Positions 1,641 through 56,070 of a stretch of 64,000 bases of DNA are shown piece by piece; positions within the stretch are counted from its first letter, which is position 1, and every line of letters begins with the position of its first letter. This DNA comes from Carcharhinus amblyrhynchos (lineage: Eukaryota): positions 62,868,001 through 62,932,000 of the forward strand of contig OZ336885.1 of assembly GCA_965287045.1 (NCBI GenBank), given 5' to 3'. The translations under genes and the position numbers were made by a program. Under the pieces are notes generated by a model. The model was not told the origin of the DNA. It made no database searches and saw nothing but the letters and a program-made list of their open reading frames with translations.

Positions 1641-1676
1641 AATTAACCCAGTGTCAAGCAAACTTGAATAATTCAC
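1641..1676 (+). CDS. Microexon A1 (36 nt, phase 1-1): [E]LTQCQANLNNS
   Basis: ttaacctatccag|AATTAACC...AATTCAC|gtaagcatc; paralogous to five other 36-nt exons with Cys at residue 5 and Leu at 9. Confidence 0.85.
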
Positions 1677-3899
1677 GTAAGCATCCTGATGTCATTCTGC
1701 ATGAAACTCCTCAATGTAGTATTGTAATTGATTGCATTTCGAATGTGCAGTTTTATTTTTTGTACATATGCAAACTACGTTTTTTACCTGTATGTCCTGC
1801 ATAGTTAGAACATGGAAAAAAGAATTGTTATCCTCGGGAAATGGAAAATAATAATAATGACAAGAATGGATGCTGATAACGAACTGTATCCATTGTGAAC
1901 GCGTCTAGTGGTAATTTCATTCTCAGAGTTAAAACCAAGCCATTCCTTGATATCCAATATTGCACATGCAGAAGATAAGCAAACGATAAAAAAAAAACAA
2001 TTGTTTTGTTTTGATACTTGTTACCGTATTCCTTGGAGTGGAGGGGTGTGGCGTACAGGGTAAATATTTTTTTCCCAATAATTCAACATTCTTCTCGTCA
2101 ATTATAATTTATTTCCAACACTTGACATAGAAAAACGCAAGTATTAGAATCCCTGTTTATTGAAAGATAAAATCCTTGTGGTACCTATTGTTTGACACCT
2201 AAAGTGTGTACACCCATTCCAGGAAGGCGCACATTGCCCCGGGCCACATTCTGGCTTATTCTCACACCCCTGCGCATTTTTTTTCCTATGCTTTGTGACA
2301 TGTCCAATACATGATGTGGCAATATAGTGCGAAAGATCCAACAACCGAGCACATTTTTGGATTGAAGAAGGAAATCCAAAAACCGGGGAAACGCCACGCA
2401 GTCGCGGAGAGAAGGAAGAAACACCACACATTCACCCACGGCCAGAATCAACTCTGGTTCTTTCGCACAATTATGCAGAGTTAAAAAAAAAACAACGGAT
2501 AACACTTTACAAAACTAACCATCCGCAATACAGATGGTTCCAACACAGCAGTACATAGCAGGTGTTATAACCATTGTCGTTCTTGGCGAAATTAATTATT
2601 TTCTTCGGGGGTATCATAGGCTCACTTGGCGTTAGTTTAAAAATATGCCAGAAGGCAGCCTCTTCTTTTTTTAAAAAATGAAGATCATCAGGGCATAGAT
2701 TTGAAGAGCGTTGCAGCACCAACTATTCCATTCAGTTCATCATATGTTTGCCAGCGACCAGGCACCAAACTATTCCATCTCAATATTCCAGCACCCGGTC
2801 TGTAGTTTTCTATTATATTGAGCTTTAACGTCTGAGCTAAACGCTTTTGAAATATTTAAACGTTCCGTTATGTCCCATCCTTTAAGATGGCGAGGTGCAG
2901 GTCATTTGTTTAACAATGGCATTTCCCCGAAAAAATAAAACAAAGTTTCTGCCCTTTAACCTAAATTTATGCCCCATGTTTATTACCCCCTGTATTAAGG
3001 CCAAATGTGCCTTCAAATGCCTTCATGTGTCTGAACACATGATAGGTTCGGATCATTCAGCTTCCCACTTCGTCTATCTGCCCCAAGGAAGCAACGCCAT
3101 CTAAAAACAATTCTCTTCATATCTGAAACTCTCCAGAACTGGCAGTGAGGAAAAAAAAAGAATGGATACAACAAAAATTTAACAACCGTAATAGCATTAG
3201 TTGTTTTTTTTTTTAAATAGTGTTCTGACTGAGACTGAAGCACGCTGGAAAAATTGGTGAATTAATGGATTAAAACTAGAAGCAGGTCGGAGCGAGTCTC
3301 TGGTCTGTGAGCTGAGATCCGAAACTTCCTATGTTGGACAGATCACGGAAGTGGTTTACTTTAACTGAGACAGCATGGCTCTGATTGGTATGGATATTAT
3401 GTATGGGGCATGCAAGATGAACTAAGCATCATGGAGTCGTTGAAAAGTAATTTTAACTGGATGTTCGACCGATGTGACTGATTTATGGTTACTCAATTAG
3501 CCGGACGACATATAATCTTCCCGAAGCAAGTAGAGAATTGTGGATAAAAGAAGTGTGAGGTTTTTTTTTGTTTGGCAGTGATAACTTCAAGACAACGACT
3601 ATCGCAACAAGACCTTGTATCATAAAAAAAATGCTTCCGGGAGGAGAAAGTAGAATATACTTGGAGGATTTTTCTTGGCCAAGGTTTTCCTAACTCATGA
3701 GTACCTATTTTCAGCTAAATATTAAAAGTTGATGGTCAGTTGGAGTTAAAGTTCAGTAAAGGGTTAATGAGTTCCAATTGTTGATGTTTAGGTTGACACT
3801 AAACGTGTCAAATAAAGAATGAATTGAATTGCTGCGATTGTTTGCCTCGTTAAAATAGAACGCTTGGAACGTGTTTAGATTAAACATGTATAACGGTGG

Positions 3900-5070
3900 A
3901 TATTATGTTTCACCTCCTCCAGTGCGAACAAATCATTGTATAGAGTGCCGAGCAGAGCTGCGCACAGCACACTACAATGAGGCACGCTCCGAAATCATTC
4001 TGGAACCCCTTACATCCTGGAGTTCATATCATAATTTCGATAAAATTGTTTTTTTTTCCTGTTCTTCTGGCATGATGATGACCAGGACTGAATGCAATAT
4101 TAAAATGCGACCAACGCAAGTATTTGTATGTTTGCACTATATTTTACCAACTCCCATGTTCAGTGCACCGGCTGATGAATGTAAGGATTCCACATGCCTT
4201 CTTAATCACGTTGGTCACCTGCGTTGCCGCTTTTAGGGACTTCTGGGCCTGTGCTCTGAAACTCATCCAAAGGTTAATCTTCCAAAAGGTTGAGTCAATT
4301 ACAGCATAATTCACAACTAAATTAAATAGCCCGCAATGCATTACCTCACCTTCACCCAGATTAATTTCAATCTGTCTTACCTCCAGCCATGTCTGCAACC
4401 TGGTAATGCACTGTTGCGTACTGTGGCAGTCCTCAGCACTATCAACAACTCCGAAGTATTAGTATCAACCGGAATTTATATTCCGACCGTTCACACAAAC
4501 TGCGCCAGTTCGTTTAAGTATCCTCCAAATAACAAAGGTCCCCGCACTGATCGCTGAGGGACAACGTCATGTTTTGTTTTATCCAACTGTGCATGCATCC
4601 TGTCACAGTATATTTCCCAAAAGATCTCCCAGCACGATGTCAGGCTCGTCGGCATACATTTTATTGGATTATTCCTGGTTTATTTCTTAAACAAGTGAAC
4701 AAGAATGGTTATTCTTCAGTCCCCTGGAAACCCCATGCGTTCAAAATGAAAGTGAGCAATCTACTACTTCCTCAGATATTCCACCTTTGCCTTCCGATGC
4801 AGCCTGACATAGATCCCATCTGAACCCGGGCACATGTCTATATTAATGCAAATTAACATACTCATCACTTCCTGCCTTGATATTTTCACTTCTATAGAGC
4901 ATTCCGACACTTATCCCTGACCTCAACATGATCACTTCCTTCTCCTTGGTAAATACTGATGCAAGTACTCATTAAAGATTTCACGTAATTTCGGTGATTC
5001 CATGCAAACTCCCGACCACTTTTATCGAGTGGGCCTCGTATTTCTTTTGCAGCCCTCTTGCTCGCTTTTA
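3900..5070 (-). mobile_element. Old CR1 LINE ORF2 fragment
   Basis: Minus-strand KAATQVTNVIKKACGILTFISRCTEH resembles CR1 KVATQVDKVVKKAYGMLAFISRGIEY. Boundaries approximate. Confidence 0.7.
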
Positions 5071-5173
5071 TTCTGAACTGACATGAATCGAAGTTATATT
5101 TTAATCATTGATTTAATTTTGAGATCAGAAGTTGTTCCCGAAATATGTTTACCATTTCTTCTCACTTTCACAG

Positions 5174-5200
5174 AAGATACAGTATTTGATCTAAAAGTCG
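5174..5200 (+). CDS. Microexon B1 (27 nt, phase 1-1): QDTVFDLKV
   Basis: ttcttctcactttcacag|AAGATAC...AAAAGTCG|gtaagc; hydrophobic residues 4 and 7 continue the heptad register. Confidence 0.85.
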
Positions 5201-55000: not shown

Positions 55001-55170
55001 AGCACTTTTGTGAGACCGGCGGTCATTATTCAACATTGTTGTTTCGCTGGACTCAACAGGTTTGATGAATAAGCAGTTCGATCCCTTCTTGAATTCAGAG
55101 TACTGTTCGTATTCCGTTGCGTATCGGGTTCAATTCATAAATGTTGTATTAATGTGTATGTGCCAAACAG

Positions 55171-55197
55171 ATGACAGAATATGTGAAATAAAAGATG
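55171..55197 (+). CDS. Microexon B7 (27 nt): DDRICEIKD
   Basis: tgtgccaaacag|ATGACAG...AAAAGATG|gtgagt; same 3' end and donor as B4. Confidence 0.83.
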
Positions 55198-56034
55198 GTG
55201 AGTAAATGCAGAATGCCAATTGGTACGTTTTCAAAACACACGTACTCATGTTATCTCTCCCATAAACTACTTGCAATCTACTTTACATATTGTTGAATTA
55301 TTAAACTCGTTTTTAAGAACGCCATTGAACATCGATTGTGAAAAATTGGTAAAGGTCGTAATTAATATACCGTCCTCATGCAAGTAAGAACGATGGGGCT
55401 GCTACAAACAGGAGCAGAATCATGAAACAAACACACACAATTGTCACAGAAGGAACCAACTTTGGGTTAAATTAGCCTTTTGAGATAGAAGAATGAACCC
55501 TGCCTCAAATCGGAATAAATGGCTTAAGTGAAAAAAAAAAACAGAGGACCACAGCACACATCAGAAGGGAAGTTACTGTTTGACACAGGCACAAATAGAA
55601 TTGAGCAGAGTGGTGTTGGATCCGGGCTTCACTGTTGAAGCTTAAAACAGTGCACGAAAGTAAATAGTGTTCAGTTTGGCTGATTGGATCAGACTTGGTC
55701 ACAAACTGATTGTGGTTTTCAAGAAAGGATTGGATAATACTTGGGGGGTTTCTCTATGCTGTGGCAGGGAAATGTTGTTCGATTACTGGAGCGAGCGATC
55801 GTGTATATTTTCAAAACTGTGTTTTTCTGACGTTTGGAAAAGAAACAGGATTTCATTACAATTACTTTAGAAAGGTCGACTTTTACCCAAATGTTTTGCG
55901 CTCTAGTACTTAACAAGAAACGCATAGATGGCAAAACTTTCGAATCCGCGTATGGACATTAATTCCTACATTGACAAGAAAACCACGACAAGCAATAACT
56001 AAAAAAAAACTTAGATGTTTTAATTACGTTCCAG

Positions 56035-56070
56035 AATTGGCCAAGTGCCAAGAAAGTTTGAAGGACACAG
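56035..56070 (+). CDS. Microexon A6 (36 nt): ELAKCQESLKDT
   Basis: ttaattacgttccag|AATTGGCCAAGTGCCAAG...GACACAG|gtaaac; 10 of 12 residues identical to A4. Confidence 0.88.

Follow-up and report, generated by a model that had tools for sequence, protein, structure and literature searches.

The window analysed here, a stretch of 64,000 nucleotides (nt) of the Carcharhinus amblyrhynchos genome (G000:C16:62,868,001-62,932,000; in a genome of 2.9 Gb), lies in the interior of what we read, with confidence only just above even, as a gene of at least 140 in-frame microexons that codes for a predicted 1,400+-residue coiled coil ending in a B30.2 domain and whose product is likely to be secreted. The gene extends over ~900 kb, with introns averaging ~6 kb, and its B30.2 exon lies 136 kb downstream of the window. 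A model of 142 exons contains no internal stop and its frame is open throughout. The numbering of the window is carried on to positions beyond it (the C16 position is the number plus 62,868,000) and two exon types are distinguished, A exons of 36 nt (12 residues) and B exons of 27 nt (9 residues).

Thirteen microexons, six of 36 nt and seven of 27 nt, are found in the window (Table 1), all bounded by AG and GT, all in phase 1-1 and all on the plus strand; every one of the tiny phase-1 exons described in an earlier note on this DNA was confirmed in its place. The window is one of ~3.5 copies of a block of ~65 kb, with a spacing of 63-69 kb, and sister copies of its exons were located by the flanking intron alone (n = 34). 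Thirty of the 34 are ungapped, and all 30 retain AG/GT and are free of stops. Since none of the 120 splice-dinucleotide bases is changed in these flank-located sisters, against 18.3 changes expected, the window exons are real and their splice sites are under selection. Of the four remaining sisters, three are copies of B7 for which the exon scan gives intact exons, and the fourth carries an in-frame 6-nt deletion. Matches to the exon profile number 129 on the plus strand and four on the minus strand, a count that is partly circular because the profile was trained on plus-strand hits; the flank-only sister test is free of that circularity.

The array to which these exons belong was scanned over 1.26 Mb around the window (-900 to +364 kb), and it ends in a B30.2 exon whose best match in the PDB is BTN3A1 (E=9e-31). 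That the array exons belong with this terminal B30.2 is supported by a catshark orthologue model, XP_038668997.1, whose B30.2 is 76% identical to that of the present gene and is joined to four short peptides, all of them exons here and in the same order (+171179, +173883, +176767 and +195537). Part of the front half of the same model matches dispersed repeat sequence. Searches by tblastn found no second B30.2 between -650 kb and +200 kb and, with 120 TRIM/BTN proteins as queries, no IgV, IgC, RING or B-box match over the scanned region; none of the 60 BTN-type IgV matches among 100 scored candidates lies on C16. No phase-1 exon of transmembrane (TM) length was found in the gene body (the maximum 19-residue hydropathy is 0.29 for the rod and 1.13 for the B30.2), nor was a C-terminal tail of the glycosylphosphatidylinositol (GPI) type, the last exon being the B30.2 itself. 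Of the domains that the earlier note had named for checking, the B30.2 is present in the gene, and no IgV, TM segment or GPI-type tail was found. AlphaFold applied to the B30.2 alignment gave a mean predicted local distance difference test score (pLDDT) of 48, too low for a fold search.

Four exon rows were excluded from the array model. Candidate +82289 creates a junction stop and has poor splice sites, -1858 contains an internal stop, and +254592 lies beyond the B30.2 exon. The A-type copy at -607166 has an in-frame stop and is probably a decayed duplicate, close to the intact, near-identical copies at -580361, -562673 and -545327.

Table 1 Features of the gene, in window numbering
Feature	Position	Strand	Description
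Whole window, gene interior	1..64000	+	Flanked on both sides by further array exons
Candidate signal-peptide-like first exon	-699423..-699351	+	73 nt; candidate only as to splicing to the array
Microexon array	-650470 to +195563	+	At least 140 exons, at least 1,417 amino acids (aa); weak exons probably still missed
A1	1641..1676	+	36 nt, phase 1, Cys at residue 5, NNS sequon absent from sister copies
B1	5174..5200	+	27 nt
A2	6798..6833	+	36 nt, Cys5, NDT sequon absent from sister copies
B2	20709..20735	+	27 nt
A3	27386..27421	+	36 nt, Cys5
B3	32448..32474	+	27 nt
A4	35264..35299	+	36 nt, Cys5
B4	36777..36803	+	27 nt, NKT sequon absent from sister copies
A5	40818..40853	+	36 nt, Cys5
B5	41239..41265	+	27 nt
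B6	41603..41629	+	27 nt
B7	55171..55197	+	27 nt, Cys outside the core, replaced by Arg in one sister copy
A6	56035..56070	+	36 nt, Cys5
Terminal B30.2 exon	+200075..+200595	+	Phase 1; Pfam SPRY, E=1.3e-15

The hydrophobic period over exons A1-B5 is 3.5. Leucine dominates residues 2 and 9 of the A exon and residue 4 of the B exon and, as it fills these as a positions, the cysteine at residue 5 of the A exon falls at heptad position d. When the window exons are concatenated, cysteines stand at residues 5, 26, 47, 68 and 89 (that is, every 21) and then at 119 (in B7) and 128 (in A6), the 21-residue register being shifted after A5 by three consecutive B exons. The earlier note's account of a d-position cysteine in every A exon, recurring at 21-residue intervals between A1 and A5, therefore holds in full. 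Across the array 33 of 51 A exons carry this cysteine; the run is near-continuous from -364 kb to +75 kb, in the middle of the rod, and near both ends of the array the residue is replaced by Leu, Phe, Met or Val. In sister pairs it is conserved in 14/17 cases, as compared with 58/71 for a-position leucine and 268/395 for other columns, so that cysteine at d is kept as well as core leucine and above the remaining columns. An expandable coiled-coil rod with retained core cysteines, as the earlier note had pictured it, is supported. The extra cysteine that it had noted in B7 is present, its codon being TGT in three of four copies and CGT (Arg) in the other, but it occupies position 5 of the B exon, adjoining an a position and outside the core. 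In the sister of A6 at -7480, a single-base change puts Trp where the core Cys would stand.

The nearest protein relatives of the gene come from catsharks. On C16, six family B30.2 exons with A/B microexons ahead of each are found from 60.4 to 66.4 Mb, and C9 has two more (103.96 and 106.38 Mb), beside an MHC (major histocompatibility complex) class I cluster (82/82 matches on C9, 89.6-101.1 Mb). A tree was made of 44 B30.2 domains, comprising eight genomic and nine database family rows (most of the latter from catshark, basking shark, skate, electric ray and chimaera) together with 18 TRIM-type and nine BTN-type rows. The 17 family rows and the 27 BTN/TRIM rows fall on separate sides with support of 100/100, on a midpoint root only and with a long branch between them. 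In Pfam scans of six relatives, SPRY is the sole family above the cut-off in five, with nothing in the sixth, and there is no RING or Ig. The family is common to sharks, rays and chimaeras, and the earlier note's description 'lineage-specific' is apt for the cartilaginous fishes as a whole and for no narrower group.

Chondrichthyan database models in the same B30.2 group include XP_042192744.1 (Callorhinchus, 'nuclear-pore anchor-like'), XP_055510696.1 (Leucoraja, 'TRIM69-like'), XP_038668997.1, XP_038671249.1 and XP_038672308.1 (Scyliorhinus), XP_069775385.1 (Narcine) and XP_078422387.1 (Cetorhinus). They share the 9/12-residue rod units of this gene, whose own rod is longer and richer in cysteine; most are fragments under misleading names, and none found covers the window exons. 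RefSeq isoforms of an electric-ray paralogue differ by gaps of 8, 11, 12 and 23 residues, which suggests in-frame exon skipping. In the Atlas, the nearest entries by features are clusters of long SPRY-bearing chordate proteins (0.93 and 0.91), which we take as a lead only, and a search with the N-terminal 700 aa of the chimaera protein was uninformative (best score 0.78).

Several observations concern the 5' parts of paralogues. A head-to-head paralogue runs from about -718 kb; towards its 5' end, on the minus strand from -768 kb to -798 kb, it has a run of at least nine candidate heptad exons of 21 nt, a size also used by chicken BG tails. On C9, a 132-nt start-type exon occurs three times on the minus strand between the two family B30.2 exons (104359670, 104757691 and 105372336); for two of the three, a non-coding exon common to both is conserved 1.6 kb upstream. 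A signal-peptide-like phase-1 exon, possibly an alternative first exon, is found at C16:65827943, in the middle of the array of the 66.44-Mb paralogue.

Secretion of the product is predicted from sequence and is the reading we prefer, at a chance we put at about even. The candidate first exon at -699423, which 49 kb separate from the first microexon downstream, has A at -3, a charged-hydrophobic-small layout with a hydrophobic core of ~14 residues, and a strong phase-1 donor. Among 2,046 ATG-to-donor candidates in 1.98 Mb, three pass a strict signal-peptide filter, and one of these is -699423, on the right strand, in the right phase and in the gap 5' of the array. A search of the genome DNA with this exon returned only the self-match. 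A hydrophobic leader opens the chimaera protein XP_042192744.1 (1,697 aa), which contains 11 A-type units, more than any other protein compared, as well as four R-X-K-R motifs where 0.6 are expected (P=0.004); its N-terminus has no real match in the genome. The skate protein XP_055510696.1 is laid out as a leader, a short coil and a B30.2. Two other paralogues have, on their sense strand, the candidates that most resemble the leaders of skate and chimaera, and in one of these genes the candidate stands 28 kb 5' of the first microexons. An all-against-all comparison of first-exon candidates from four paralogues gave fragments of long interspersed nuclear elements (LINEs) as its top matches. A shark skin proteome (PMC10707392) includes one 'zinc-binding protein A33-like' entry, a name also used for ordinary TRIMs, and it was not counted. 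The extracellular location proposed in the earlier note is thus made plausible by the signal-peptide-like N-termini of skate and chimaera and by the candidate first exon, and not by its argument from sequons.

That argument concerned three N-glycosylation sequons, NNS in A1, NDT in A2 and NKT in B4, taken as marks of a glycosylated ectodomain. All three are present in the sequence, where they arise from a Lys to Asn change at a place with a common Ser/Thr two residues on, but they are kept in none of seven sister copies of A1, A2 and B4. Sequons in this gene are no commoner than chance and are not conserved, and glycosylation of the rod would be incidental.

Other points count against the reading as a secreted rod. 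The rod of 1,417 aa holds six sequons, as against a shuffled mean of 4.2 (P=0.24; run without exon candidate +82289). Amino-acid constraint among sister exons is weak (dN/dS = 0.66, 54 pairs), and exon identity equals flank identity at 0.84. The strict signal-peptide filter was chosen after -699423 had been seen; with a relaxed filter, seven candidates pass in the same 78-kb 5' gap, and by similarity -699423 ranks 69th of the 2,046 against the skate leader and 24th against the chimaera leader. Reading through an intron acceptor could account for the skate leader, database N-termini in general may be intron read-through, and a basic cluster after the chimaera leader could mean an anchor with the rod inside. 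No R-X-K/R-R motif occurs in this gene's model, and a dedicated exon search found none that was convincing. As for the paralogues, at the two C9 starts the conserved exon upstream lacks an open frame, the second exon offers a strong Met-Ala-Ala start, and nothing convincing as a leader turned up 40-50 kb upstream. No convincing leader exon was found in 51 kb for the 60.45-Mb C16 paralogue, or for the head-to-head neighbour apart from an overlapping position, and the leader-like exon of the 66.44-Mb paralogue stands in mid-array.

The alternative to export that we take most seriously, as a real if lesser prospect, is a cytosolic coiled coil with a B30.2 and no membrane anchor, resembling a freed BG tail (zipper protein) or an enterophilin and forming a rod linked to the cytoskeleton or to trafficking. 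The d cysteines would then be small packing residues, or would form only late cross-links, as in hardening tissues. Enterophilins, which are mammalian and intracellular, combine a long heptad rod with a B30.2 and lack Ig and TM parts; their resemblance to the predicted layout here is one of architecture. A cytosolic product would fit the apparent Met-Ala-Ala starts after a non-coding exon in the C9 paralogues, the lack of sequon enrichment and the 21-nt exons of the head-to-head paralogue. It would also fit the normally intracellular setting of B30.2 (PMC7348870), itself a point against export, and the chicken BG tails of 21/24-nt exons, of which the zipper protein is a soluble cytoplasmic version (PMC4046983). 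It fits less well with leader-like N-termini in the models of two independent species and with the correct strand and phase of the 5' gap's best leader-like exon, whilst 33 regularly spaced core cysteines would be easier to explain in an oxidising compartment. A different possibility, which we consider less likely than not but which is compatible with secretion rather than exclusive of it, is that the array comprises several transcription units or has alternative first exons, giving secreted as well as cytosolic or short forms, with the window exons perhaps in a shorter product. The thrice-repeated C9 start exon between two B30.2 exons points this way, one copy seemingly being enclosed in a longer gene (a hint of internal promoters), as do the mid-array leader-like exon of the 66.44-Mb paralogue and the many lengths of the fragmentary database models; the single B30.2 found from -650 kb to +200 kb and the frame open throughout argue for one unit.

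By the features tested, the protein is not a tetherin, PLVAP, BTN, BG or TRIM. Small phase-1 exons are also found in BTN genes, and one might suppose a true butyrophilin/BG membrane protein (IgV, TM, heptad tail and B30.2) in which the Ig and TM exons had been missed and the rod is a cytoplasmic tail. The small phase-1 heptad exons before the B30.2, the BTN3A1 match and the paralogues adjoining the MHC would suit such a protein, which is nevertheless very improbable and largely refuted: there is no Ig by tblastn over -900 to +364 kb, no BTN-type IgV match on C16 and no TM-length exon, the B30.2 falls outside the BTN rows, and the relatives have only SPRY/PRY in Pfam. Butyrophilins (BTN/BTNL) do share with this gene a coiled coil followed by a B30.2 (PMC7348870) and, through two of its paralogues, MHC linkage; they differ in that no IgV, IgC or TM was found here, in that the present rod is far longer and in that its B30.2 sits on a separate long branch. 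Chicken BG genes have 13-36 exons of 21/24 nt coding for a cytoplasmic tail behind a TM segment (PMC4046983) and, like the zipper protein, build a rod from many tiny exons in variable number, as here; the present gene has at least 140 exons of 27/36 nt, with a few of 21 nt, keeps the heptad only in pairs of exons and ends in a B30.2. Of the two options in the earlier note, BTN/BG-like is accordingly the nearer one, by virtue of the terminal B30.2 and the two paralogues beside the MHC, but membership does not follow. TRIM proteins with a PRY-SPRY end likewise combine a coiled coil with a B30.2 head, but have a different exon design and the RING or B-box that was found neither by tblastn over 1.26 Mb nor in the relatives. 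The other option, a type II membrane protein like tetherin or PLVAP with a glycosylated, disulfide-linked ectodomain and the candidate first exon as an uncleaved signal anchor, can be given hardly any credence. BST2/tetherin and PLVAP share with this rod cysteines in a coiled-coil core, and the candidate exon is hydrophobic, but a core of ~14 residues is short for an anchor, the C-terminus is a B30.2 with a 19-residue hydropathy maximum of 1.13 and no GPI-type tail, there is no TM-length exon and the sequons are not conserved. The locus differs too: the single Pfam PV-1 match, marking PLVAP, is on C26, a different contig from this gene, and the synteny comparison that the earlier note had put forward thus places PLVAP elsewhere and gives MHC linkage for the two C9 paralogues only.

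If the product is secreted, the candidate signal-peptide exon 49 kb upstream would send the chain into the secretory route, where chains would zip together in parallel and in register, the simplest form being a dimer. Disulfides at d positions suit two-stranded coils. The d-position cysteines, one per 21 residues in the middle of the rod, would oxidise to give a ladder of ~30 interchain disulfides that stiffens it. With the coiled-coil rise of 0.1485 nm per residue, the computed rod length is ~210 nm. Carried as a pair at the end of a stalk of ~200 nm, the B30.2 heads might then bind ligand with avidity, in the manner of collectins or angiopoietins. The rod would have grown by tandem duplication of exon blocks and could vary in length by in-frame skipping, a possibility raised by the electric-ray isoform gaps. 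Our best guess is an innate-immune binding role, for which the only pointers are the fast divergence, the presence of a B30.2 and the position of two paralogues beside the MHC; alternatively, the protein may serve structurally in a secretion. Vespryns (ohanin) provide a case of a PRY-SPRY protein found in a secretion (PMC12730704); they are very short and have no rod, and their likeness to the present protein is drawn from description. Put at its fullest, as an ancient chondrichthyan family of secreted B30.2-tipped rods with at least eight genes in this genome, of which this one would be a soluble binder of ~200 nm with ~30 disulfides and more than 140 microexons, the proposal is tentative, its chances falling somewhat short of even.

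A full-text search of the literature, in which subscription papers are mostly outside coverage, gave no description of an architecture or family that joins a leader, a giant microexon rod and a B30.2. Were export true, a domain of intracellular immune sensors would be carried on an extracellular stalk throughout the cartilaginous fishes, and the MHC linkage of two paralogues bears on the origin of the BTN, BG and TRIM genes. Exported or not, this is a multi-megabase gene family that annotation has split into golgin-, trichohyalin- and TRIM-like fragments, and it offers a natural test case for the splicing of more than 140 microexons over introns of ~6 kb.

The remaining sequence of the window includes a long GATG/ATGG satellite with eight N stretches (57272-64000) in the intron after A6, and related LINE fragments at 9754-11142 and 49361-52068, with an open reading frame (ORF) at 50736-51350 whose Pfam match is RVT_1 (E=3.4e-19). 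Locally duplicated sequence and stretches richer in GC, at 12861-14812, 30705-31467, 38521-39824 and 43126-43770, have stop-free frames of 175-260 codons, with no Pfam match in those scanned. At about +221.9 to +225.7 kb, between two tail-to-tail B30.2 exons, there are ORFs of a retrovirus-like or long terminal repeat (LTR) element (gag-, protease/pol- and env-like, by eye). Elsewhere in the genome, ~20 BTN-type IgV exons on C53, C46 and C9 (98.8/102.7 Mb) represent expanded conventional butyrophilin-like genes, separate from the family described here.

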